Notes: generated by a model not told the origin, from the letters alone. DNA of 11,961 nucleotides from a candidate division WOR-3 bacterium (GCA_965649115.1 CBFGJN010000058.1:1-11961); one strand, 5' to 3'. Shown: positions 1 to 11,542, counted from the first letter of the stretch. A program made the numbers and translations.

Positions 1-143
1 CCACCCTAATAATAAGCCTTCGGCTTATAAATGCCCATTTTTCGGTCTAGGGGGGCTTTGTCCCCCATAAAATTTTTAATTTCCTTAAAATTTTTGTAAG
101 TTATTGATAATCAAGGACTTAACACTATTTACTAGACAAAGCA
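1..143 (+). mobile_element. MITE-like element copy A (left end outside window)
   Basis: Hairpin ATAAGCC-TTC-GGCTTAT 12-28; GGGGGGC-TTT-GTCCCCC 50-66; double IHF-like site 97-121; right TIR TTACTAGACAAAGCA ending 143. Confidence 0.85.
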
Positions 144-159
144 ATTTAAAATTGTCGTG

Positions 160-341
160 TGCTGTGTCTAGTAATTTTGAAAAAAATATATATTTTATTA
201 TATTTTTCCCTCTCACCCTGAAAATAAGGCTTCGCCTTAAAAACTTTGCCCCTAAAATCTCCCCATTAAATCAATAGTTTCATTAAAGATTTTACAAGTC
301 ATTGATAATCAATTACTTAACATTATTTACTGGACAAAGCA
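160..341 (+). mobile_element. MITE-like element copy B (182 bp)
   Basis: Left TIR TGCTGTGTCTAGTAA at 160; right TIR TTACTGGACAAAGCA ending 341; hairpin TAAGGC-TTC-GCCTTA 225-239; IHF-like pair 295-319. Confidence 0.88.
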
Positions 342-350
342 ATGGTTTAT

Positions 351-512
351 TGGTGTGTATAGTAATTCTGAAAATAATTATTTTTCTTTATTTGCTCACC
401 TGCTCTAAAATCAAGCCTTCGTCTTATAAATACTCCATCTTTTGCTATGGGGGAATTTGTATCTAATAATTTTTCCCTCCATAAAATCCCCCCAATTTAC
501 TAGACCAAAGCA
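351..512 (+). mobile_element. MITE-like element copy C (short, degenerate, no IHF module)
   Basis: Left TIR variant TGGTGTGTATAGTAA 9 nt after copy B; right TIR TTACTAGACCAAAGCA; flanks ATGGTTTAT / ATTGTTTAA (7/9 identical). Confidence 0.8.
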
Positions 513-529
513 ATTGTTTAACAATTTAT

Positions 530-1321
530 CTAATCACTAACCAAAATAAAACCAATACCTAAATTTTTCAATTTGTTCTTTATTTTATTTGAAATCTCCT
601 TTCCAATTAAAATTGGTATAACCTTTCTCTTATAAACTTTCTGTAAAATTTCTCTCCTTCTCATAACTCTTTCAATATCATAATCTCCAATTTTATATGA
701 AATCTCAATAGCAACATATACTTCCTCTCTCGTGCTTTTTAACATACCACTAATAATTAAATCTAATTCACTAACATCCTCCTCCTCTTCTTCACTAATT
801 ACTTTTTCTTCAACATATTTGTCTAATTCATCAAATAATTCACTTTTTTCTTTTATCTTACATTTTCTAAGTCCAATATGCCTTCCTAAATATGAGCATA
901 TGTTTAAGAAAACTTTATGTTCTAATTGCCAACCTTTCAATTCTTGTATGCTCTTTTCATGGCTTTTTAGTATTTCTTCCATCCTATCTTGTCTCTGTTT
1001 TATCTCATCTTGCCCCTTCTCCAATAATTCAAATCTTTTATTTACTTCATTTTTGAATTCTTCAAACCTTCTATCTGCCTCTTCAAATCTTCTATTTACT
1101 TCACTTCTAAATTCCTCAAACCTTCTATCTGATTCATCAAATCTTTTATCTATTTCATCAAATCTTCTATTTACTTCACTTCTAAATTCTTCAAACTTAA
1201 TAGGTAATTCTAATAACTCTTTTGTTAAAATTAACATTCTCAACTTTTCAAGATAGTCTGGTCTTTCTCTTAATAAATTTAGCAAATCTTCAAATTCTTT
1301 TATAATGTATTCTTTTTCCAT
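530..1321 (-). CDS. Hypothetical protein: N-terminal repetitive coiled coil plus C-terminal PD-(D/E)XK nuclease-like domain
   Basis: 263 aa. FEEFRSEVNRRF / FDExDRR coiled-coil repeats; C-terminal ELDLIISG...VYVAIEISYKIGDYDIERVMRR pattern typical of this nuclease-like fold. Family assignment is by motif recognition only. Confidence 0.7.
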   Translation of the reverse strand: MEKEYIIKEFEDLLNLLRERPDYLEKLRMLILTKELLELPIKFEEFRSEVNRRFDEIDKRFDESDRRFEEFRSEVNRRFEEADRRFEEFKNEVNKRFELLEKGQDEIKQRQDRMEEILKSHEKSIQELKGWQLEHKVFLNICSYLGRHIGLRKCKIKEKSELFDELDKYVEEKVISEEEEEDVSELDLIISGMLKSTREEVYVAIEISYKIGDYDIERVMRRREILQKVYKRKVIPILIGKEISNKIKNKLKNLGIGFILVSD

Positions 1322-1330
1322 AGTTTTAAA

Positions 1331-1336
1331 AGTTTA
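1331..1336 (-). promoter_or_regulatory. Putative -10 box (TAAACT), 9 nt before ATG 1321, no SD
   Basis: Minus strand reads CCTT-TAAACT-TTTAAAACT-ATG; same context as at 7042, 8396 and 11265. Confidence 0.45.
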
Positions 1337-1344
1337 AAGGTTAA

Positions 1345-1486
1345 ATTATTTTTATTTGTTTCATTATGTTCTGCCCACCCGCCCTGAAAATAAAACCATC
1401 TTTTGCCTTGTGGAATCAAAAATTTTCTTAAAACTTCTATAAGTCTTTGATAATCAACAACTTAACAATAATTATTGGATAAAGCG
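1345..1486 (+). mobile_element. MITE-like element copy D (left end eroded, start approximate)
   Basis: GCCCACCCGCCCTGAAAATAA core; IHF-like pair 1440-1464; right TIR TTATTGGATAAAGCG ending 1486. Confidence 0.75.
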
Positions 1487-1495
1487 ATTTAAAAT

Positions 1496-1641
1496 TACTT
1501 TGTCCAATAATAAAGGCTACGCCTTTAAAATTCCCATATTTCGGCAAGGGGGCAATAAACCCCCCATAAAAACTATAATTTTCTTAAATTTTTGTAAGTT
1601 GTTGATAATCAATAATTTAACACTATTTATTGGACAAGGCA
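1496..1641 (+). mobile_element. MITE-like element copy E (internal deletion after left TIR)
   Basis: Left TIR TACTTTGTCCAATAA 9 nt after D; hairpin TAAAGGC-TAC-GCCTTTA 1511-1527; IHF-like pair 1595-1619; right TIR TTATTGGACAAGGCA. Confidence 0.82.
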
Positions 1642-1650
1642 ATTGGAAGC

Positions 1651-1765
1651 TTAAATCAGTAATTTCAGCAATTTTTCATAATTTGCCAACCCACTCTGAA
1701 ATTAAGTCTTTGACTTTAAAATACCCATTCATAAGCTTTGGGGAAATTTGCCCACATTAAACAAC
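1651..1765 (+). mobile_element. MITE-like element copy F (degenerate fragment, ends approximate)
   Basis: CAGTAATTTC, GCCAACCCACTCTGAA, hairpin AAGTC-TTT-GACTT 1704-1716, ATACCCAT and TGGGGAAATTTGCCCAC are colinear with the consensus. Confidence 0.65.
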
Positions 1766-1825
1766 CTTTAAAATTTAATAACTATTATATTTTTCCTTAC
1801 TTACTTTGAATTTAGGGCGGATAAT

Positions 1826-2647
1826 ATGGAAATAGAATATTCTGATAAGGGTTATATTTACAAGCTAAAAGGGAATGTTTTTTTGAAAACAGACAATTAT
1901 GAAATTTACTCAAATAAAGGGGTATATTATGAAGGTGATGGTATTTCAGAGCTTGAAGGTAATGTTTTAGTAAAAGGTAAAAATTACATTACAACATCTC
2001 ATTATTTAAAACATATTCAAAAAAATGATGAAATTTATTTAAAAGGAAATGTTTATCTTGAAGATAGTTTGAGAATTATAAAAGCAAATGAAATTCATGT
2101 AAAAAATAATTTTTCAAGGGCAAAAAATAATGTTCATATTTACTTAAAAGATAAAAAAATTATTTGTGAGGGAGATAGTGGGAATTACGATTTGAATAAA
2201 AAGGAAGGTGTTATTTTTAATGTGAAGTACATAAACATAATTAGGGATAGTGATACAGTTGACATTAGAACCAAAATTGTTTTTGTTTTTAAAGAAAATT
2301 TAAAACTCAAACCATTAATAAGCCTTAAAACGAGGAAAGAATTTGCAAAAGGTGATAGCTTAATATATGAAACATTAGAAGATTCAACTGAAAAAATTAC
2401 AATTTACAATAATGCTTTTATATCTTGGGAAAATGGTAATGGAAACTCTGATACAATTATTATTTATTATAAAAATTCAAGAATTGAAAATGCCCAATTT
2501 ATAAATAATGCTTATGTCCAAACAAAGAATAACGAAGATATAATATCAGTAAAATCAAATTTGGTAAATGTTGAATTTTCTGAAAGTAAAGTTAAAAAAG
2601 TTATTTGTTATGATTTAATTGAAGGGGTAAGTGAAAAATGGAAGTAA
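1826..2647 (+). CDS. LptA/OstA (LptD N-terminal-like) beta-jellyroll family protein; true start may be upstream
   Basis: Repeated L(K/E)GNV motifs (LKGNVFL, LEGNVLV, LKGNVYL) and GDS/SDT turns typical of OstA/LptA; overlaps the der start. Confidence 0.65.
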   Translation: MEIEYSDKGYIYKLKGNVFLKTDNYEIYSNKGVYYEGDGISELEGNVLVKGKNYITTSHYLKHIQKNDEIYLKGNVYLEDSLRIIKANEIHVKNNFSRAKNNVHIYLKDKKIICEGDSGNYDLNKKEGVIFNVKYINIIRDSDTVDIRTKIVFVFKENLKLKPLISLKTRKEFAKGDSLIYETLEDSTEKITIYNNAFISWENGNGNSDTIIIYYKNSRIENAQFINNAYVQTKNNEDIISVKSNLVNVEFSESKVKKVICYDLIEGVSEKWK

Positions 2648-3930
2648 AAAAAAGACTGCCAAGAATTGTAATTGTCGGAAGAGCAAATGTTGGAAAATCA
2701 ACATTATTTAATAAACTCATTGAGAAACCATTTTCTATTGTAAAAAACGAGCCAGCTATCACAAGAGATAGAATTACAAAAATTGGATATTGGCTTGATT
2801 GGAGTTTCTATTTAACAGATACAGGAGGATTATTAGACAAAAAAGAAATGGAAATTCTATATGATAAAGTTTTAGAAAGTATTAAAAAAGCTATTGAAAA
2901 AGCTGATGTTATCATATTTCTTACTGATGGAACTACTGAACCAATGCCTATGGATTATGAAATCGCTAATGTTTTAAGAAATTATAATAAAAAGGTTTTT
3001 TTAGCAGTTAATAAATGCGATAGAAGTGATTTTTCATATTTAGAGTACTATAAACTTGGATTTGATAAAGTTTATCCAATATCAGCAGAACATAAAATTG
3101 GATTAAATGAATTATTTGAGGATATCTTTGATTATCTTAAAATTGAAGGTTTTGAACCTATAAAAAGATACAAGAAATTAAAAGATAAACCAAGAGTAGG
3201 AATTATAGGCAAAGTAAATGTTGGAAAATCATCATTATTAAATGCTCTTGTTGGAGATGAAATTGCTATTGTATCTGATATTCCTGGAACAACAAGAGAT
3301 TCAATAGATGTTGAAACAAAAGAATTCATATTTGTTGATACTGCTGGACTTAAAAGAGAATTTAAAGATGATATTGAATATTATGCTTATGTTAGGACTT
3401 CAAGAAGTATTCATTATTCAGAAGTTTTATTAGCTGTATTAGATGCATCTCAAAAAATTACAAGAATGGATAAGAAAGTTGTAGGAATTGCTCAAAAGGA
3501 ATATAAAGCACTTATAGTTGTTTTAAATAAATGCGACTTAATAAAGAAAAAAGATAGAAAAAAAGTTTTTGATTATTTCAAAAAGGAACTTGAATTTGCT
3601 GATTGGGCTCCTTTTCTATTCGTTTCAGCCAAAACTGGCGAAAATTTAGATATTCTAAAACAAACGATAAAAGAAGTTTATAAACAATATAATAAACAAT
3701 TGAGAAAAGATGAATTGCTTGATACATTATCAGAAGCTTTTGAGTTAAATAAACCTCCCTCAAGAATTTATGAAATTAAACAAGTTGGACATAAACCTCC
3801 AACATTTAAATTTGTTCTTGATAAAGAATTCAAAAGCCATTATGTTAAATATATTGAAAGTGCTTTAAGAAAAAAATTCGGTTTTTATGGAAGTCCAATA
3901 AAAATTATAATGGAAAGAAAAAAACAATGA
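2638..3930 (+). CDS. der: Ribosome biogenesis GTPase Der (EngA)
   Basis: Two GTPase domains: GRANVGKS/TRD/DTGG/NKCD and GKVNVGKS/GTTRD/DTAG/NKCD; C-terminal LRKKFGFYGSPI. Confidence 0.96.
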   Translation: MEVKKRLPRIVIVGRANVGKSTLFNKLIEKPFSIVKNEPAITRDRITKIGYWLDWSFYLTDTGGLLDKKEMEILYDKVLESIKKAIEKADVIIFLTDGTTEPMPMDYEIANVLRNYNKKVFLAVNKCDRSDFSYLEYYKLGFDKVYPISAEHKIGLNELFEDIFDYLKIEGFEPIKRYKKLKDKPRVGIIGKVNVGKSSLLNALVGDEIAIVSDIPGTTRDSIDVETKEFIFVDTAGLKREFKDDIEYYAYVRTSRSIHYSEVLLAVLDASQKITRMDKKVVGIAQKEYKALIVVLNKCDLIKKKDRKKVFDYFKKELEFADWAPFLFVSAKTGENLDILKQTIKEVYKQYNKQLRKDELLDTLSEAFELNKPPSRIYEIKQVGHKPPTFKFVLDKEFKSHYVKYIESALRKKFGFYGSPIKIIMERKKQ

Positions 3931-4562
3931 ATGGATGGATATTTAAAGATGGATTTTATGTTTTTGAAGGAGAATTCTTTATAATCAAGGTTTCTACAAA
4001 ATTAATAGATGAAGAAACAATAACTTGTGATGTATGGTTAAATCAAATTCATTCGGATAAAATCTACATTATTGATGATATTAAAAATTTACCAAAAGGC
4101 AACTTAGATGGTGATGGAATAATTTTAAAATTGAAAAATGTAAAGTCAAGAATAAGAACTGCTGATTGTTATCCTACTATATTAATTGATAAAAAAAATC
4201 AAATTGGTGCCATTTTACATATTGGTTGGAGGGGTTCATATTTAAGGATTTTAGAAAAATGCATAAGAATTTTCCATGATTATTTTAATTCAAAAGATAT
4301 AATGGCAATTTTTGGTCCTGGTATTTGCTCAAAGTGTTATGAAGTAAAGGAAAATTTATTTAATTACTTTCCAAAAGAGTACTTTTATTTCAAAGATGAA
4401 AAAATTTTTTTTGATATTTTAACTTTCAATATAGATATTCTCAAAAGATTTGGCATTAATGAAATTATTTATCCACCATCTTGTTCTTTTGAAAACCCTA
4501 TTCTTTATTCACATAGAAGAAATGAAAAAAGTAGAATTTTTACAATTTTTGAGATGTTTTAG
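3927..4562 (+). CDS. PgeF/YfiH-family (polyphenol oxidase/laccase-domain) protein
   Basis: LNQIHS, TADC, HIGWRG, GPGICSKCYEV and YSHRR motifs; ATGA overlap with the der stop. Confidence 0.9.
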   Translation: MNGWIFKDGFYVFEGEFFIIKVSTKLIDEETITCDVWLNQIHSDKIYIIDDIKNLPKGNLDGDGIILKLKNVKSRIRTADCYPTILIDKKNQIGAILHIGWRGSYLRILEKCIRIFHDYFNSKDIMAIFGPGICSKCYEVKENLFNYFPKEYFYFKDEKIFFDILTFNIDILKRFGINEIIYPPSCSFENPILYSHRRNEKSRIFTIFEMF

Positions 4563-4572
4563 ATAAATCTCT

Positions 4573-4693
4573 TCCTTTGTCAGAATAGTTGCTTGATTTA
4601 ATGTGGGGATTTTATTGGGGGATTAAAAGCATAAAAATGGGCATTTATAAGCCAAAGGCTTATATTTAGGGTGGGTGGAAAAAAGACAAAGCA
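4573..4693 (-). mobile_element. MITE-like element copy G (short, inverted), between convergent genes
   Basis: Minus strand begins TGCTTTGTC...CCACCCACCCTAAATATAAGCC-TTT-GGCTTATAAATGCCCAT; degenerate far TIR TCCTTTGTCAGAATA at 4573. Confidence 0.8.
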
Positions 4694-4713
4694 ATAATTT
4701 TAAATTTTTTTTC

Positions 4714-5307
4714 TTATGGACTAAATGGTTGTCTTGATAAAATTGCTTTTTGTAAAGTGATACTATCAGCATAAATAATTTCATAACCTGTTGGAATACC
4801 TCTTGCTATTTGCGTTATATTTACTTTTAAGTCTTTTATTTTTTCATAAATATAATAGCTTGTTGCATCTCCTTCAACACTTGGACTCAAACCAATTATC
4901 ACTTCTGAAATATCCTCTTCCAAAATTCTACTTTTTAAATCATCAATAAATAAGTTATTTGGTTCAATTCCCTCAAGCGGAGAAATTAAACCTCCAATAA
5001 CATGATATTTCCCATTATAAACCCCAAGTCTTTCAATATGAAACATATCATATGGACTTTCAACAACCATAATAACTTTATCTCTTTGAATATCTGAACA
5101 TATATCACAAATTTCTTTCTCGGATATTGTATGACATTTTGAGCATAGTTTTAATTCTTTTACTTCATTCAAAGAATTCATTAAATCTTCTAGAATTTTT
5201 TTGTTTTTTACAATTGTAAAAGCACTTTTTTCAGCAGTTTTTTCACCAATACCTGGAAGTTTTTTTAAATTTTCAATAAGTTTTAAAAAAGACTTTGGAA
5301 ATTTCAT
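4714..5307 (-). CDS. recR: Recombination mediator RecR
   Basis: LPGIGEKTAEK HhH, CxxC...CxxC zinc finger, YHVIGGLISP, EGDAT, IARGIP. Confidence 0.97.
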   Translation of the reverse strand: MKFPKSFLKLIENLKKLPGIGEKTAEKSAFTIVKNKKILEDLMNSLNEVKELKLCSKCHTISEKEICDICSDIQRDKVIMVVESPYDMFHIERLGVYNGKYHVIGGLISPLEGIEPNNLFIDDLKSRILEEDISEVIIGLSPSVEGDATSYYIYEKIKDLKVNITQIARGIPTGYEIIYADSITLQKAILSRQPFSP

Positions 5308-5618
5308 ATACCAAGTTGTTTTCTAACTTCTGGTGGTAAATCTTTTAATAATTCCTGCATCTTTTGTAATGATTGTTGTTGAGCTTTCTTTTGAGCATTA
5401 TTTATTAAATTAACAATAGTTTTTTCAATTTTTTTAATATCTTGTGATTTAAATATATCCTCACTTAATTTTATATCAATTACCTCACCAGCACCATTTA
5501 CAATAACCTTTATTTTACCATCCATTCCACTCTCCTCTATCCTTATATTTTTAAGTTCCTTTTGCATTTTGTCTATTTTAGCCTTCGCTTCCATAATCTG
5601 CTTTAAGTTCCCAAACAT
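5304..5618 (-). CDS. ybaB: YbaB/EbfC nucleoid-associated protein (start revised from TTG 5624 to ATG 5618)
   Basis: KMQKEL...GKIKVIVNGAGEVIDIKL pattern; conserved adjacency to recR; AGGAGG lies 6 nt upstream of ATG 5618 but abuts TTG 5624. Confidence 0.9.
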   Translation of the reverse strand: MFGNLKQIMEAKAKIDKMQKELKNIRIEESGMDGKIKVIVNGAGEVIDIKLSEDIFKSQDIKKIEKTIVNLINNAQKKAQQQSLQKMQELLKDLPPEVRKQLGI

Positions 5619-5624
5619 TTTCAA

Positions 5625-5630
5625 CCTCCT
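5625..5630 (-). promoter_or_regulatory. Shine-Dalgarno AGGAGG for ybaB
   Basis: Minus strand AGGAGG-TTGAAA-ATG. Confidence 0.75.
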
Positions 5631-6705
5631 ATATTTTTATTATATCTTTTGTTATACTCGTTAAATTTACAACTTCATTTTTCTCCTTATCAAGATAAAC
5701 AGTGTCCTCTATTCTTATTCCAAATTCGCTTTCAATATAAACACCAGGTTCAATTGTAAAAACTTCATTTCCTTTTAATATCCATTCATCTGCTTTTTGA
5801 CTAAAAGCAGGTAATTCATGAACATCAATTCCAATAGAATGACCAAGTGCATGACCAAAATAATTATCATCATAACCAAAGGACTTTAAATAATCCCTTG
5901 CTATTGAATCAACCTCTTTATTTTTTATTCCAATTTTTGTTTTTTCTTCTACTAAATCTACTGCTTTTTTAACAATTTCATAAACTTTTAAAAATTCTTC
6001 ATTTATACTTGAACCTATCCAAATCGTTCTTGTAATATCACAACAATATCCATCATAAACTAAACCAAAATCTATTAGAAGTGGTTTATTATTTAAAATT
6101 TTTTGATTTGATGGTCTTCCATGTGGCATAGCACTTCTATGAGATGTTAAAACAATTGTTTCAAATGCCATTTTCTCAACATTATATTTCTTTTTTGCTA
6201 TATATTCCATCTCTATTGCTAAATCTCTTTCAGTCATTTTTTCAGGTTCTATAATGTTTAAAATTTCTTCAAAGATATTTTTAGCAATATCACAAGCCTT
6301 CTTAATTTTATTAATTTCTTCATAGCTCTTAATAGCTCTTAAATTCTCAATTATATTGTTAGTGGGAATAAATTCAATATCCCTAAATTTTTCTTTAAAA
6401 CTATTAAGTGTGCTTATTGTAAAATATTTTCCTTCAATAGCTAATTTTTTTATTGGTTTTAAAAGTTCTTCCATGGTTTTGAAATAATCATTATAAATAA
6501 TAATTTCATATTTGGTTTTGTCAATTTTTTCATTAGCGTAAATTTTATACCTAAAATCAGTAATAAAATAATTTTTCTCTTTGGTTATTAAAATTTGGGC
6601 AAATGAACCAGAAAAGCTTGAAAGGTACTTTATATTTGATAAATTTGTAATAAAAAGCCCATCTAAATTATTTTCAGTTAAATAATTACGAAGGTAAGAT
6701 AGCAT
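5629..6705 (-). CDS. Xaa-Pro aminopeptidase/dipeptidase, M24B family
   Basis: Creatinase-like N-terminal domain (TDFRY); metal-ligand motifs IDFG, CDITRT, HALGHSIGIDVHE, TIEPG, RIED. Confidence 0.94.
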   Translation of the reverse strand: MLSYLRNYLTENNLDGLFITNLSNIKYLSSFSGSFAQILITKEKNYFITDFRYKIYANEKIDKTKYEIIIYNDYFKTMEELLKPIKKLAIEGKYFTISTLNSFKEKFRDIEFIPTNNIIENLRAIKSYEEINKIKKACDIAKNIFEEILNIIEPEKMTERDLAIEMEYIAKKKYNVEKMAFETIVLTSHRSAMPHGRPSNQKILNNKPLLIDFGLVYDGYCCDITRTIWIGSSINEEFLKVYEIVKKAVDLVEEKTKIGIKNKEVDSIARDYLKSFGYDDNYFGHALGHSIGIDVHELPAFSQKADEWILKGNEVFTIEPGVYIESEFGIRIEDTVYLDKEKNEVVNLTSITKDIIKI

Positions 6706-7033
6706 TTATCTTCGGTAAAACAATTTCAGGCTTTAATCTTGGATCTTTTTTCCATTCTTCTCTCAAAATTTTTAAAACATTTAAACGAACTTCAATTGGA
6801 TAATTGCTAATAATTGGTTCAATATGTTTTTTCCACAATTCAACACCTCTTTTATATGCCCAACCTCTTATGTTCGTTGGATGTTTTATTAAGAATGTTT
6901 TAGCAATTTCAAGAGCTTTTTCAGTTTCACCTGCTAGCAGAAGTTCAGCAATTTTAGATTCTACTTTATAACTTTTCTTTTTTAACTTTAATTTTTGTTG
7001 TTTTTTAATTTGATACTGCTTCCATCTGCTCAT
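6686..7033 (-). CDS. Hypothetical basic protein
   Basis: 115 aa; ATG start with an upstream -10-like box; overlaps the peptidase start by 20 nt; no recognised family. Confidence 0.7.
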   Translation of the reverse strand: MSRWKQYQIKKQQKLKLKKKSYKVESKIAELLLAGETEKALEIAKTFLIKHPTNIRGWAYKRGVELWKKHIEPIISNYPIEVRLNVLKILREEWKKDPRLKPEIVLPKINAILPS

Positions 7034-7041
7034 ATCCGAAA

Positions 7042-7047
7042 ATTTTA
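7042..7047 (-). promoter_or_regulatory. Putative -10 box (TAAAAT), 8 nt before ATG 7033
   Basis: Minus strand CTT-TAAAAT-TTTCGGAT-ATG. Confidence 0.55.
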
Positions 7048-7069
7048 AAGCATAACTATTTAATCAAAT

Positions 7070-7273
7070 TGCTGTGTCTAGTAATTCTGAAATATAGATT
7101 ATTTCTATATTTTCCCACCCACCCTGAAAATAAGGCTTCGCCTTTAAAGTACCCATATTTCGGCTATGGGGGGCTTTGCCCCCCATTAAAACCCCCCTTT
7201 AATAAATAATTCCAATAAAATCTTTATAAGTTATTGATAATCAATAACCTAACACTATTTACTGGACAAAGCA
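7070..7273 (+). mobile_element. MITE-like element copy H (full length, 204 bp) with perfect 9-bp flanking direct repeats
   Basis: TIRs TGCTGTGTCTAGTAA / TTACTGGACAAAGCA; TAATCAAAT at 7061-7069 and 7274-7282; hairpins 7132-7144 and 7166-7186; IHF-like pair 7227-7251. Confidence 0.92.
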
Positions 7274-7282
7274 TAATCAAAT

Positions 7283-7426
7283 TGCTGTGTCCAGAAATTC
7301 TAAAAATATAATTATTTCTATATTTCCCTCACCTACCCTAAATTCAAGCCTTTTGCTTTAAAATGCCAATTTTTCGGCTGCGGGGGCTCCGTCCCCCTAT
7401 AATTCTCCCATTAATTGAACAAAGCA
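7283..7426 (+). mobile_element. MITE-like element copy I (short, 144 bp) with the same 9-bp repeats
   Basis: TIRs TGCTGTGTCCAGAAA / TAATTGAACAAAGCA; TAATCAAAT at 7274-7282 and 7427-7435; lacks the IHF module. Confidence 0.88.
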
Positions 7427-7481
7427 TAATCAAATTTTTCGGTGTTGGAAGCTTTAATTTCAGACCCACTCCCACCTGACT

Positions 7482-8168
7482 TTAAAAATTATAAATTTTT
7501 AATGCCAAATTTTTAAAAAATTCTATAACTTCATTTATTTCAATAGGTTTTATCATATTTAGAGGGATAAAATTTAATTTTTCTAAAATTTCAATTCTTT
7601 CCTCTATTTCAAATGCAACGCTTGGAGGGTCATCAAATAATTTTTCCTTCCTTCTTGAAAGTTCATAAATTTCATCAAAGTTAAAATTGAAGTTTTTAAA
7701 AATAAAATAAAAATCAATCAAATCTCTAATTTCAAATCTTGAAACAATAGCACAAAGTTTATTGCTTGCTATATTTTCAAGACAATCAACTTTTAGTGTT
7801 CTATCATTCTCAAATTTAAAAACCTTCCTTTCACAATCTATTGAAAGTCTATCTATTACAAAATCAACTTTTATACCAAGAATTTCATAAGATAAATAAA
7901 ATTCTGATATTGATTTTATGCTTACATTATAAGAAAATTTGAACTTTATCCAAAAACTTAAATCATTTAAATTAACATCTGAAATTGTAAAAAAATCTAA
8001 ATCTTCTGAAATTCTATGTCCTAAATAAAAAACTGAAAGAGCGGTTCCTCCAGTTAGAAAAAATTCATTTTTTATAGTTTCATTTTCAAGTAAACTTATT
8101 AACAAATTTCTTTGACTATCTGATTTGTAAGCACTTTTTATTTCTTTAACTGGATAATTCTTTTCCAT
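7482..8168 (-). CDS. AbiEii/AbiGii-family nucleotidyltransferase toxin (type IV TA-like)
   Basis: FFLTGGTAL...HRISEDLDFF signature; downstream NKL...R...RDLID motif. Confidence 0.9.
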   Translation of the reverse strand: MEKNYPVKEIKSAYKSDSQRNLLISLLENETIKNEFFLTGGTALSVFYLGHRISEDLDFFTISDVNLNDLSFWIKFKFSYNVSIKSISEFYLSYEILGIKVDFVIDRLSIDCERKVFKFENDRTLKVDCLENIASNKLCAIVSRFEIRDLIDFYFIFKNFNFNFDEIYELSRRKEKLFDDPPSVAFEIEERIEILEKLNFIPLNMIKPIEINEVIEFFKNLALKIYNF

Positions 8169-8389
8169 TTTTTTCTAGCCTTTGGAGATATTTTAACTTT
8201 ATCAATAAATTCTTCAATTTCAGAAATTGTAAAAATTTTTAAAGTATCAGCAACACTTGCCCTTTCAAGAAATCTTGATAAAATCCATAGATATACTTTT
8301 TCATTATTTCTATTATTATTCAAGAATTTAATTAAATTTTGCTCATCTTGAAAATCACTATAATCCCAAAATACATTTTTCAAATTCAT
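8138..8389 (-). CDS. Small putative antitoxin partner of the AbiEii gene (DUF6922-like)
   Basis: 83 aa; FWDY...ILSRFLER pattern; directly upstream of the toxin ORF and overlapping it by 31 nt. Confidence 0.7.
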   Translation of the reverse strand: MNLKNVFWDYSDFQDEQNLIKFLNNNRNNEKVYLWILSRFLERASVADTLKIFTISEIEEFIDKVKISPKARKKWKRIIQLKK

Positions 8390-8395
8390 ATTAAA

Positions 8396-8401
8396 ATTTT
8401 A
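8396..8401 (-). promoter_or_regulatory. Putative -10 box (TAAAAT), 6 nt before ATG 8389
   Basis: Minus strand CCTT-TAAAAT-TTTAAT-ATG; no SD. Confidence 0.55.
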
Positions 8402-8423
8402 AAGGATAAAAATTGATTTGTTG

Positions 8424-8627
8424 TGCTGTGTCTAAGAATTCTGAAATTATTTATTTTTCTTATTTTGCCCACCCGCCCTGAAATAAAGGCTTCGCCTTTA
8501 AAATGCCCATTTTTAGGCTTTGGGGGGCTTTGCCCCCCATTAGATCCCCCATAAAATCAATAGTTTTATTGAAATTTTCGTAAGTCATTGATAATCAAGC
8601 ATTTAGCAATAATTACTGGACAAAGCA
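8424..8627 (+). mobile_element. MITE-like element copy J (full length, 204 bp)
   Basis: TIRs TGCTGTGTCTAAGAA / TTACTGGACAAAGCA; hairpins 8484-8500 and 8521-8539; IHF-like pair 8581-8605. Confidence 0.92.
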
Positions 8628-8636
8628 GATAAAAAT

Positions 8637-8750
8637 TGCTTTGTCTAGTAATTCTGAAATAATTTATTTTTCTATGTTTTGCCCAACCGCCCTATGAATA
8701 AGCCTTCGGCTTATAAATACCCATATTTGTGCCTTGGGGGGCTTTGCCCT
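8637..8750 (+). mobile_element. MITE-like element copy K (right part missing, abuts alaS stop)
   Basis: Left TIR TGCTTTGTCTAGTAA 9 nt after J; hairpin ATAAGCC-TTC-GGCTTAT 8698-8714; ends within GGGGGGCTTTGCCC. Confidence 0.85.
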
Positions 8751-8753
8751 AAT

Positions 8754-11255
8754 TTAAATAAATAACTTTTTTATTTTATCTTCTAAGTTTTCTAAAATTT
8801 CTAAATTATCCGTTCCTCCTTCTGCTTTAATGTCAGAGCCACCTCCCTTCCCCAAAATTTTTATCATTAGATTATTAGCATTAAATTTATCTTTTAGAAG
8901 TTTCCCAATTCTAAAATGTGCTATAACTTTATCTTCTAATTTTGAAAAAAGAAAAATAAGTAAATCATCTTTTTGTAGGTAATCTGCCAATTTTCTTAAA
9001 AATTCCATATCAGCACCCTTTAAAACTTCAAAATAATATCTATATCCATTAGTTTCTTTTGAACTTATCGTTTTTGAATAAATGCTAATGTACCTATCAA
9101 GTAATTCATTATACTTAACCTGCATATTTTTATTTTCAAGAATAGTCTTTTCTAATTTTTCAGGAATGTCTTTAATATCTGATTTTAATAAAACTGATAC
9201 CTTTTTGAGAATTTCCTCGTTTTCTTTAATGTATTCAAAAGCTCTAATACCAACATAAGCATTTATTCTTCTAATTCCACTACTAACAGCCTCTTCCTTT
9301 ATAATTTTAAAAAATCCAATTTCCCCTGTTCTCCTAACATGTGTTCCTCCACATAATTCTTTACTAAAATCTCCAATACTAACAACCCTAACAATATCTC
9401 CATATTTTTCTTCAAAAATAGCAATTGCTCCTTCATTTATAGCACTTAAATAGTTTTTATATTCCCAAATAACTTCCAAATTTTCTCTAATTTTTTCATT
9501 AACAAGTTTTTCTATTTCATTAATTTCCTTATCACTTAAAGGTTTTGGATGTGAAAAGTCAAATCTCAATCTGTCATTCTCAACTAAGGAACCTTGTTGA
9601 AGTGCATGTTCTCCAATAATTCTATGTAATGAAGAATGTAATAAATGTGTTGCTGTGTGAGCTCTCATATTTGCTTTTCTTAAATTTACATCAACTTTTG
9701 CCAAAACTTCTAAATTATTTAACTTTATATTGTTTTTCAATTTTCCAAATAAAACAATATCTGAGCCTATTTTTTTAGTATCAAAAATTTCAATTTCATC
9801 ATTTTCTAAAACTAAAATTCCCTTATCTCCAACTTGACCCCCACCTTCGGGATAAAAAGGAGTTTCAAATAAAACAATGTAAATTTTATCATTTTCAATT
9901 TTATATTTAGCAATTTTTGTTTTATATTCCATAAAATCATAGCCTACAAATTTCGTTGATTTATAGTTACCGTCAATATAATCCCAATTTTCAATGAGCA
10001 TTATATTCCTTTTCTCCTTAGTCAGTCTTTTCCTTTCATCTAATAATCTATCATAACCTTCCAAATCAAGTTTTAAATTTTTATCTTTTGCATATTCTTC
10101 AATTAAATCCAAAGGTATTCCATAAGTATCGTAAAGCTTAAATATATCTTCACCTTTTATTATATCATTTGAATTTTGGACAATTTCAATTAGATAAACG
10201 ATGTTCTTTCCAATTGTTTGAATGTACTTTTCTTCTTCGTTTTTGATAATTTCTTTAATTGTTTTTAAGTTTTTTGAAATTTCAGGATAAGCATTTTTCA
10301 TAATTTCATAAACTACATCAACAAGTTTATATAAAATTGGTTCATTAACATTTAATTTCTGAGCAAATTTATAAGCCCTTCTTAAAATTCTTCTTAAAAC
10401 ATAACCTCTTGAATAATTACTTGGATAAATTCCATCAGAAATTGCAAATACTAATGCTCTAATATGATCTGCTATAACCCTATGGGGAACTCCCGTTTTT
10501 TCATCATATTTAACACCTGTTAAATTTTCTATTTCTTTAATAATTGGCATAAACAATGAAGTATGATAATTATTATTAACACCTTCAATAACTGATAATA
10601 ATCTTTCTAACCCCATTCCTGTATCTACATTCTTTTTTGGAAGTGGTTCTAAACTTCCATCACTCTTTCTATTGAATTCCATAAAAACGATATTCCACAA
10701 TTCAAGCATTTCATCACCTAAATCATAATGAATCTCTGTTGAAGGTCCACAAGGACCAACATCACCCATTTCCCAAAAATTATCTTTTTCATCAAATTTA
10801 AAAATTCTTTTTTCATCAATTCCAACTTCATCTTTCCAAATATAATATGCTTCATCATCTTTATAATAAACACTAACATATAACTTTTCTTTTGGAATTT
10901 TAAAAACATTTGTTAATAATTCCCAAGCCCATAAAATTGCCTCCCTTTTAAAATAATCTCCAAATGAGAAATTACCAAGCATTTCAAAGAATGTATGATG
11001 TCTTCTTGTAAATCCAACATTATCTAAGTCATTATGTTTTCCTCCCGCTCTTAAGCATTTTTGACAAGTAGTTATTCTTTTTGATGGTGGTTCTGCTTCA
11101 CCTAAAAAATATATTTTAAATTGATTCATACCTGCATTTGTAAAAAGAAGTGTATTATCTCCTCTTGGAAGTAATGAACTTGAAGGATAAATTAGATGAC
11201 CTTTTTCTTTAAAAAATTCCAAAAATGTTCTTCTTAATTCATCAGCTTTTTTCAT
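8754..11255 (-). CDS. alaS: Alanine--tRNA ligase
   Basis: LLFTNAGMNQFK, HHTFFEMLGNFSFGDYFK, DTGMGLER, TPFYPEGGGQVGD, editing motifs HTATH and ELCGGTH, C-terminal GKGGG. Confidence 0.99.
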   Translation of the reverse strand: MKKADELRRTFLEFFKEKGHLIYPSSSLLPRGDNTLLFTNAGMNQFKIYFLGEAEPPSKRITTCQKCLRAGGKHNDLDNVGFTRRHHTFFEMLGNFSFGDYFKREAILWAWELLTNVFKIPKEKLYVSVYYKDDEAYYIWKDEVGIDEKRIFKFDEKDNFWEMGDVGPCGPSTEIHYDLGDEMLELWNIVFMEFNRKSDGSLEPLPKKNVDTGMGLERLLSVIEGVNNNYHTSLFMPIIKEIENLTGVKYDEKTGVPHRVIADHIRALVFAISDGIYPSNYSRGYVLRRILRRAYKFAQKLNVNEPILYKLVDVVYEIMKNAYPEISKNLKTIKEIIKNEEEKYIQTIGKNIVYLIEIVQNSNDIIKGEDIFKLYDTYGIPLDLIEEYAKDKNLKLDLEGYDRLLDERKRLTKEKRNIMLIENWDYIDGNYKSTKFVGYDFMEYKTKIAKYKIENDKIYIVLFETPFYPEGGGQVGDKGILVLENDEIEIFDTKKIGSDIVLFGKLKNNIKLNNLEVLAKVDVNLRKANMRAHTATHLLHSSLHRIIGEHALQQGSLVENDRLRFDFSHPKPLSDKEINEIEKLVNEKIRENLEVIWEYKNYLSAINEGAIAIFEEKYGDIVRVVSIGDFSKELCGGTHVRRTGEIGFFKIIKEEAVSSGIRRINAYVGIRAFEYIKENEEILKKVSVLLKSDIKDIPEKLEKTILENKNMQVKYNELLDRYISIYSKTISSKETNGYRYYFEVLKGADMEFLRKLADYLQKDDLLIFLFSKLEDKVIAHFRIGKLLKDKFNANNLMIKILGKGGGSDIKAEGGTDNLEILENLEDKIKKLFI

Positions 11256-11264
11256 AGTTTGAAA

Positions 11265-11270
11265 ATTTTA
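11265..11270 (-). promoter_or_regulatory. Putative -10 box (TAAAAT), 9 nt before alaS ATG
   Basis: Minus strand TTT-TAAAAT-TTTCAAACT-ATG; no SD. Confidence 0.55.
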
Positions 11271-11292
11271 AAATATAAATTTAAATTTACTA

Positions 11293-11438
11293 TGCTGTGT
11301 TTAGTAATTCTGAAAGTCCTTATTTTATTATAATTTCTCCACCCACCCTGAATATAAGCCTTTGGCTTATAAATACCCATTTTTCGGCTGTGGAGGACTT
11401 CGCCCCCCATAAGTCACCCATTATTTTTGGACAAAGCA
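11293..11438 (+). mobile_element. MITE-like element copy L (short, 146 bp)
   Basis: TIRs TGCTGTGTTTAGTAA / TTTTTGGACAAAGCA; hairpin TATAAGCC-TTT-GGCTTATA 11353-11371; no IHF module. Confidence 0.87.
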
Positions 11439-11440
11439 AA

Positions 11441-11510
11441 GTTTTATTATATTTTTCCCACCTACTCTAAATACAAGTCTTCGGCTTAAAAACTTCATCC
11501 CCCATCAAAC
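11441..11510 (+). mobile_element. MITE-like element fragment M (no TIRs, ends approximate)
   Basis: TTTTATTATATTTTTCCCACCTACTCTAAA and AAGTC-TTC-GGCTT 11475-11487 are colinear with the consensus. Confidence 0.7.
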
Positions 11511-11542
11511 CTCCGAAAAAACCCTTAACAAAATCTCTTATT

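Follow-up and report, generated by a model that had tools for sequence, protein, structure and literature searches.

The window considered here (the whole stretch of 11,961 nucleotides (nt), which is one entire contig, CBFGJN010000058.1, of the candidate division WOR-3 bacterial assembly GCA_965649115.1) raises the question of how a single short, non-coding repeat could come to occupy every sizeable non-coding region of the sequence, and of what determines where its copies lie. An earlier note, made from the window sequence only, had described the repeat as a miniature inverted-repeat transposable element (MITE) mobilised in trans, possibly by an IS903-like transposase. That description stood up to the analysis reported here, and a feature absent from it was added, namely that insertion is probably aimed at promoters and occurs in one orientation. 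The reading put forward, to which a probability of about 85% is given as a whole, is that of a MITE family mobilised in trans by an IS903-group insertion sequence (IS), with promoter-side, orientation-fixed integration and stacking of successive copies. The genome that carries the window (G000) is represented by a 1.85-Mb assembly of 99 contigs, with 27.6% GC and 94.5% completeness.

Within the window, a profile built from genome copies (nhmmer) gives 13 matches to the repeat, which cover 1825 bp or 15.3% of the sequence, close to the roughly 13 copies, 1.9 kb and 16% estimated in the earlier note. The copies fill 80% of the 2287 non-coding bases and are present in all six sizeable non-coding regions, as had been claimed, and in none of the open reading frames (ORFs). 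The 15-nt terminal inverted repeat (TIR) that they were said to share occurs 14 times when up to three mismatches are allowed (0.42 expected; none of 200 shuffles reaches 14), and the core word CCCACCCRCCCTRAA is found 11 times, with 0.19 expected. A 9-bp duplication, TAATCAAAT, stands three times in the window (7061-7069, 7274-7282 and 7427-7435) and brackets two different copies.

Mobility and the parent insertion sequence

Extending the copy count to the genome (nhmmer profile matches with E up to 0.01) gives 770 matches on 93 of the 99 contigs, amounting to 99,319 bp or 5.4% of the 1.85 Mb. The whole model is spanned by 166 of these matches, of which 164 are distinct, with a mean identity of 79% (5th-95th percentile 72-86%). 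That a compact genome assembles badly can be traced to the family, because at least 90 of its end words are no more than 300 nt away from a contig end; identical copies were probably collapsed during assembly, and the MITE family is a main cause of the fragmentation, the copy numbers being lower bounds.

The 9-bp target duplications noticed in the window are a property of the family. Among 157 testable full-length copies the flanking 9-mers agree at all nine positions in 70 (with varied sequence) and at eight in 7 more. When left and right ends are paired irrespective of what lies between them, 130 pairs have a duplication of at least 8/9, comprising 57 units of 200-219 bp, 51 of less than 200 bp, 21 doubles or triples of 300-699 bp, and one unit of 1426 bp. 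In a sample of a sister species (G002), six of ten copies are flanked by a 9/9 duplication.

The same sister species supplies unoccupied sites, whose absence, together with that of a transposase sharing the TIR, would according to the earlier note have spoken for a REP-like or regulatory repeat. The comparison covers a 390-kb sample, a quarter of G002, in which the flanks are about 85-93% identical. For 21 MITE blocks both flanks could be placed on one G002 stretch: they lie at most 30 nt apart in 10 cases, which are thus unoccupied, nine have 168-2342 nt between the flanks, and two are ambiguous. The cleanest empty site corresponds to G000 C4:35714-35925, where a 212-bp copy with an 8/9 duplication stands in G000, while G002 keeps the single 9-mer, has no element and has an uninterrupted 614-residue ORF. 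To judge from this alignment, the copy is an apparent gene disruption, and the statement that no copy lies inside a gene, correct for the window, fails genome-wide. In the window itself, the degraded copy G (4591-4704) is absent at the same place in G002 (C57 alignment, block 45); the spacer has diverged in G002, and at 4563-4713 only the absence of the copy is visible rather than a tidy empty site. No clean empty site was found at the other window loci, and synteny breaks at 7055 in all four relatives. When contigs from four DNA runs were aligned with the window, they were found to be interrupted at the repeats, with no junction that passes cleanly over a single copy. The repeats are a true MITE family.

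Among 40 relatives, many copies were found in G002 and one scored match in G003, but none in the congeneric G001 and G004. From a neighbouring genus, two genomes have matches of only 24-25 nt, and the other 34 relatives have none. As regards the host, the closest named relative of the alaS product (53% identity) is from a Candidatus Hydrothermota metagenome-assembled genome (MAG), followed by Ignavibacteria and Chlorobi MAGs, and the public DNA sets containing this DNA are mostly hot-spring metagenomes, no RNA run being among those listed.

The ends of a mobile element that codes for a transposase and has the same TIR, the second thing on which the earlier note had made its interpretation depend, were found at contig ends. 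Behind the family's end word, sequence other than the MITE falls into two classes, one at 10 contig ends (left ends of an IS) and the other at 16 (right ends). These IS ends share 18-26 nt with the MITE ends; the left-end class opens a transposase reading frame (N-terminus) and the right-end class encodes the C-terminus and the stop. Two longer left-end variants contain 49-56 residues matching NF033579 (E 1e-5 to 3e-5), and a database search with the 56-residue piece returned one protein of 300 amino acids (aa), P0004, that is 92% identical over 86% of the piece. P0004 is also 96% identical over 49 residues to the other contig-end fragment, and its C-terminal residues are identical to those translated from the second contig-end class. 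It matches NF033579 with 245.5 bits (cut-off 140) over profile positions 2-288 of 289, and PF01609 and PF13737 match as well. In direct comparison (BLASTP) it is 27% identical to the IS903B transposase over 295 residues (E 6e-33), and about 26% identical over 96% of its length to IS903B transposases in the database search. The aligned stretches include LDSTG/IDSTG, DAGYDT/DGAYDT and YNKRWSVES/YNRRSIAET, which we take to be the catalytic DDE region and the YREK signature (Y..R...E......K).

The ends agree with this relationship. The IS903B end GGCTTTGTTGAATAAATC, taken from a plasmid record in which 1057 bp lie between the ends, is identical to the end found here at 14 of 18 positions, and the length of the parent IS, estimated from the contig-end sequences and the 300 codons of P0004, is about 1.05 kb. 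The IS also duplicates 9 bp, because six of its ten left ends can be paired with a right end by an exact 9-mer (shuffles: mean 0.08, maximum 2). The side-specific subterminal words correspond crosswise, the MITE right end to the IS left end and the MITE left end to the IS right end. By these sequence comparisons, the predicted parent is an IS903-group element of the IS5 family with at least 16 genome copies, and P0004 is the predicted mover of the MITEs in trans; the shared ends, the IS5-family transposase that aligns with that of IS903B and the 9-bp duplications all bear out the IS903-like mover suggested earlier.

Searches for further copies of the IS were negative within their scope. Among duplication-flanked TIR pairs separated by no more than 8 kb, the assembly has no intact IS, only the 1426-bp unit, which has no transposase; in 20-40 relatives, IS ends and transposase gave only TIR-length matches or remote fragments; metagenome contigs, scanned for exact words of the IS interior, gave 0 matches; and a search of genome contigs for loci related to the transposase confirmed none. 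Two side observations may be placed here. The IS transposase gene is itself preceded, a few bases before its ATG, by a one-mismatch form of the promoter box described below (for example C1:1-126 and C93:1-236). The 1426-bp unit (G000 C11:31359-32784, or L001:560-1985) has the MITE left and right ends and a perfect 9-bp duplication, TATATCTTT; between the ends lie two small genes (65 and 242 aa), which give it the appearance of a composite that was mobilised whole with its cargo.

Placement relative to a putative host promoter box

Next to many MITE arrays stands a short sequence, CTTTAAAATTT, which precedes start codons by 4-8 nt and tRNA genes by 5-18 nt. Genome-wide, 697 such boxes have an ORF start (at least 60 aa) within 2-21 nt, with a peak at 4-8 nt, and 216 of them (31%) carry a MITE. 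A box lies 5-18 nt before the mature 5′ end of 32 of the 45 tRNA genes, those without a box being mostly the later genes of tRNA clusters; at the three intact outer left ends in the window the box and a start codon are 4-5 nt apart. The box belongs to the host DNA, because it lies outside the target duplication and is free of the MITE at an orthologous promoter: the box of ORF 6686-7033 is present, with no MITE, before the orthologue in four other species of the genus. Since it also stands upstream of tRNA genes, the box is taken to act as a promoter rather than as a ribosome site, and its distance of 4-8 nt from start codons suggests mostly leaderless transcripts.

The flanks outside the MITE ends were scanned for AAATTTTAAAG with at most one mismatch. 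For the 329 outer left ends, the distance to the box is 19 nt for 132, 18 nt for 47 and 9-13 nt for 46, with four or fewer at each of 17, 20 and 21 nt; at 185 outer right ends no distance class exceeds 3. All three window arrays with an intact outer left end (starting at 7070, 8424 and 11293) are exactly 19 nt from their box. The IS behaves in the same way through its right end, which corresponds to the MITE left end: 11 of 16 IS right ends are 18-19 nt from a box and another 3 adjoin a MITE in a stack, whereas no box is found at any of the 10 IS left ends. The sample of G002 serves as a replicate, with 12 of 21 outer left ends at 18-20 nt from a box. Both the MITE and the IS are thus biased in spacing and in orientation relative to the box.

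Such a pattern may in principle be left behind rather than produced directly, if integration were random or merely AT-biased (as for IS903) and purifying selection in a compact genome removed copies from all other places. The copies are old on average (79% mean pairwise identity), which would have given selection time to act, and not all of them are where a promoter-seeking element should be: 73 of 320 arrays with an intact left end (23%) have no recognised box within 8-21 nt, and one copy lies in a gene. Selection on random insertions would, however, be expected to yield neither a single-nucleotide peak (132 ends at 19 nt, 47 at 18 nt) nor a fixed orientation; the same spacing is found in the near-identical, hence recent, IS copies (11 of 16), and the repeated use of the very same 9 bp, detailed below, is left unexplained. 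This alternative is considered very improbable, and we infer that the bias arises at integration rather than through later selection.

On the preferred reading, the DDE transposase of the IS would move the MITEs in trans and generate 9-bp target duplications, the 9-bp target lying mostly 11-19 nt upstream of the promoter box, with a minor register about 8 nt closer. The end that matches the transposase-stop end of the IS would always be placed next to the promoter, which the transposase would read by DNA shape, by sequence or through a promoter-bound protein. The promoter-side copy of the duplication would then recreate the target, later copies could enter the same 9 bp, and repeated entry would build head-to-tail stacks in which the newest copy is closest to the promoter.

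The arrays can be compared with this scheme. Of 542 same-strand arrays, 376 are single copies, 115 are doubles and 51 are larger. From one complete right end to the next complete left end there are exactly 9 nt in 73 of 85 abutting pairs; this spacer is identical to the next 9-mer on the left in 28 of 52 cases and to that on the right in 9 of 27. There are 48 promoter-anchored stacks in which the first and the second copy each begin with the left end; in 35 of them the copy on the promoter side has the higher profile score per position and in 13 the lower (Wilcoxon p 8e-6), and a complete right end is present in 44 of the promoter-side copies, as against 19 of the second copies. This agrees with copies entering one promoter-defined target again and again, the latest of them being closest to the promoter.

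A different explanation of stacking is that the end of a resident copy attracts new copies (self-adjacent insertion), the link with promoters being secondary. In the reconstructed targets of the 70 copies with a perfect duplication, the base after the duplication follows another copy's left-end word in 60-86% of cases, and 17 stacks have no recognised box. Against this, 120 single copies lie 17-21 nt from a box with no neighbouring copy, IS right ends are found at a box far more often than on a MITE (11 of 16 versus 3), and the first insertions at any site need another cue. Self-adjacent insertion as the primary rule is judged improbable.

Several results nevertheless weigh against promoter-directed integration of an IS903-group MITE, and they are gathered here. 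Firstly, the 17 stacks without a box count against it too, as does the fact that most copies with a perfect duplication then have another copy beyond it; a resident left end may add to the promoter as an attractant, or stand in for it. Secondly, besides the 73 boxless arrays already mentioned, 90 of the 329 outer left ends have no box within 80 nt, and at least one MITE copy is inside a gene (the copy in contig C4 described above); because of the boxless arrays and this copy, targeting is to be regarded as a strong preference and not as a rule. Thirdly, the promoter role of the box is a putative one, read from its position. Fourthly, 87 of the 157 testable full-length copies are without a perfect duplication. 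Fifthly, the IS interior is missing from the assembly, so that the transposase sequence was taken from another public assembly, and no such transposase was found in the 180-contig assembly of G002, despite its many MITEs. Finally, the palindromic target pattern of IS903 was found in only 2 and 1 of the 70 reconstructed targets (background 0.022).

Comparison with known systems

The last point is connected with what is known of IS903 itself, whose reported target is a palindrome flanking the duplication, WTTYA-N9-TRAAW (PMC2577343, Table 1). This preference is a property of IS903 and not a criterion for the IS5 family. The element described here resembles IS903 and IS903B in its single DDE transposase of about 300 aa, its 9-bp duplications, its predicted length of about 1.05 kb and its ends (14 of 18 positions); it differs in that protein identity is only 27%, in that the palindromic target of IS903 is not seen, and in that the cue is one-sided, linked to the promoter and fixes the orientation.

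In its mode of action the closest parallel is found elsewhere. The TnGBS conjugative elements and the insertion sequences ISLre2 and ISKra4, which have Mutator-like transposases, are described as integrating upstream of promoters in a conserved orientation with 8-9 bp duplications, the orientation being ascribed there to a difference between the two inverted repeats (PMC3942029); TnGBS lands 15-17 bp upstream of sigma-A promoters. Promoter-upstream insertion in fixed orientation is shared with the present family, whose two ends also differ beyond position 15. The transposase superfamilies are unrelated, however (IS5-family here, not Mutator-like), so that the family works alike without being a member; moreover, in contrast to TnGBS, 18-19 nt (or 10-13 nt) separate the end from a box directly preceding start codons, and most copies are a MITE derivative.

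Within the IS5 family, E. coli IS5 is described as inserting upstream of particular promoters at glpFK, bglGFB and flhDC, at one site and in one orientation in each, with a tetranucleotide target and local DNA destabilisation and under selection for activation (PMC5493358). Those are few hot spots, without a genome-wide fixed spacing from a promoter box. As a family of small repeats, the MITE may also be set beside the Correia (NEMIS) elements of Neisseria, which have a TA duplication, 26-bp repeats, hundreds of intergenic copies and an IHF-like site in the middle of the element. Both are short, non-coding and bounded by inverted repeats, with hundreds of intergenic copies and a central IHF-like site; the present family differs in its 9-bp duplication, in its identified parent IS, and in integration that is promoter-directed and stacked. 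A full-text literature search, judged from titles and abstracts, turned up, among the papers listed, neither a description of this family nor one of a MITE that seeks promoters.

In the account given in PMC3942029, Mutator-like transposases are the only ones in bacteria to which promoter-directed integration is attributed. Were an unrelated DDE family to share this habit, sparing genes in this manner would be seen to have evolved repeatedly, and an enzyme of 300 aa would offer a small model for how a transposase reads a promoter. It is also apparent that a compact, 1.85-Mb thermophile genome can hold more than 5% of one element and that, because 216 of the 697 promoter-like sites carry a copy, the MITE can be used as a practical promoter marker in a lineage with no cultured member. 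A further step, namely that the IS903-group transposase evolved promoter-guided integration independently and that the MITE has become a working part of about one third of the recognisable promoters, is speculative and rather unlikely; if true, the MITE, with its GC hairpins and HU/IHF-like palindrome kept constant, might for example insulate promoters on their upstream side, or give many of them a common platform for the binding of one factor.

Internal modules and window features

The 205-nt consensus has the order left end, AT tract, CCCACCCACCC, short hairpin, G6/C6 hairpin, TTGATNATCAA palindrome and right end, which is the module order that had been read from the window. No reading frame is kept between copies, again as stated earlier: among the 166 full-length copies the longest stop-free stretch shifts in strand and frame (median 42 codons), and ORFs that start with ATG have a median of 20 codons. 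Both ends are conserved across these copies. Pairing in the stems of the two hairpins is kept in 88-99% of copies, with free variation in the loops, and the G/C runs, CCCACCCACCC and the palindrome reach about 90% conservation or more, in a family with 21% overall divergence between copies and in a genome of 27.6% GC. This conservation of modules suggests constraint, which may act on transposition-competent lineages rather than on host function. At the paired stem positions 67/73, 272 copies have C-G and 112 have G-C, with rarer double changes at two other pairs; the covariation is real but consists mostly of this one swapped pair, it is not counted as proof of selection on structure, and it may mark subfamilies.

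The module that the earlier note had associated with IHF is a putative binding site only. The IHF consensus is WATCAANNNNTTR; a word fitting it is present in 126 of the 166 full-length copies, in 74 of them at one place, TTGATNATCAA is found in 100, and HU/IHF-family proteins are encoded in the genome. The hairpins were also considered as terminators, and a simple terminator scan flags neither of the two named GC hairpins; one site from that scan falls inside a copy (433-452, in copy C), on a separate weak stem.

The structured interior bears on whether the repeats are instead elements of a repetitive extragenic palindromic (REP)-like, regulatory or structured-RNA kind, retained because they serve the host and not moved by a DDE transposase. 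GC stems and a palindrome far better conserved than the loops, at so low a genomic GC content, and the two-way exchange at stem pair 67/73 are what such a function would lead one to expect. The TIRs, the 9-bp duplications, the empty sites and an IS with the same ends speak against it; the exchange is mainly one swap that may separate two subfamilies, and an Rfam scan of the window, which the earlier note had left as a possible source of a known family, found none at threshold (best ALIL, 17.4 bits against a gathering score of 50). REP and BIME elements differ further in that the repeats here have TIRs and 9-bp duplications, and PF01797 finds no Y1 (RAYT) transposase in the 94.5%-complete assembly. 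Taken as an alternative to transposition, this explanation is already contradicted, and overall it is extremely improbable.

The features of the window are collected in Table 1.

Table 1. MITE copies, promoter boxes and associated words in the 11,961-nt window (profile positions refer to the 205-nt model).
Feature	Position	Strand	Basis and remarks
MITE copy A	1..143	+	Profile 51-205, E 9e-35; cut by contig start, right end complete
MITE copy B	160..341	+	Profile 1-205, E 3e-38; 182 bp, both ends complete, GC hairpin 2 deleted
MITE copy C	351..494	+	Profile 1-130; 9 nt past copy B; degenerate right end to about 512
Promoter box (one mismatch) of ORF 530-1321	1328..1339	-	Sequence; adjoins copy D, which lacks a left end
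MITE copy D	1355..1485	+	Profile 27-204; 5′-truncated
TIR-like word near copy E	1496-1510		9 nt after copy D
MITE copy E	1504..1641	+	Profile 55-205
MITE fragment F	1669..1772	+	Profile 28-132
MITE copy G, degraded	4591..4704	-	nhmmer; between convergent yfiH-like and recR genes
Promoter box GAAAATTTTAAAG of ORF 6686-7033	7038..7050	-	19 nt from left end of copy H
Target duplication TAATCAAAT, first of three	7061..7069	.	Sequence
MITE copy H	7070..7273	+	Profile 1-205, E 2e-55; full length, 204 bp; promoter-proximal in stack
MITE copy I	7283..7426	+	nhmmer 7283-7422, right TIR 7412-7426; without palindrome module; distal in stack
Promoter box TAAAATTTTAAAG of ORF 8138-8389	8392..8404	-	Sequence; 19 nt from copy J
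MITE copy J	8424..8627	+	Profile 1-205, E 1e-58; full length, 204 bp
MITE copy K	8637..8749	+	nhmmer; 9 nt past copy J; 3′-truncated at alaS end
Promoter box GAAAATTTTAAAA of alaS (8754-11255)	11261..11273	-	Sequence; 19 nt from copy L
MITE copy L, short form with both TIRs	11293..11438	+	nhmmer 11293-11421; TIRs at 11293 and 11424-11438
MITE fragment M	11438..11516	+	Profile 27-129, E 1.7e-7

Three neighbouring regions of the window may be mentioned in addition. Between two MITE stacks lies an AbiEii-type toxin gene with a small upstream ORF (7482-8389), a stretch that is not at the syntenic place in G002, where synteny stops at window 7055. Between two MITE arrays lies an ORF of 263 aa (530-1321, minus strand) with no Pfam match, whose N-terminal half consists of 21- and 54-nt repeats and which has three relatives in the genome (88% and 49% identical, and a fragment). 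Finally, an ORF that runs off the contig end (11543-11961, minus strand) is made of 117-nt (39-aa) tandem repeats that are 92% alike.

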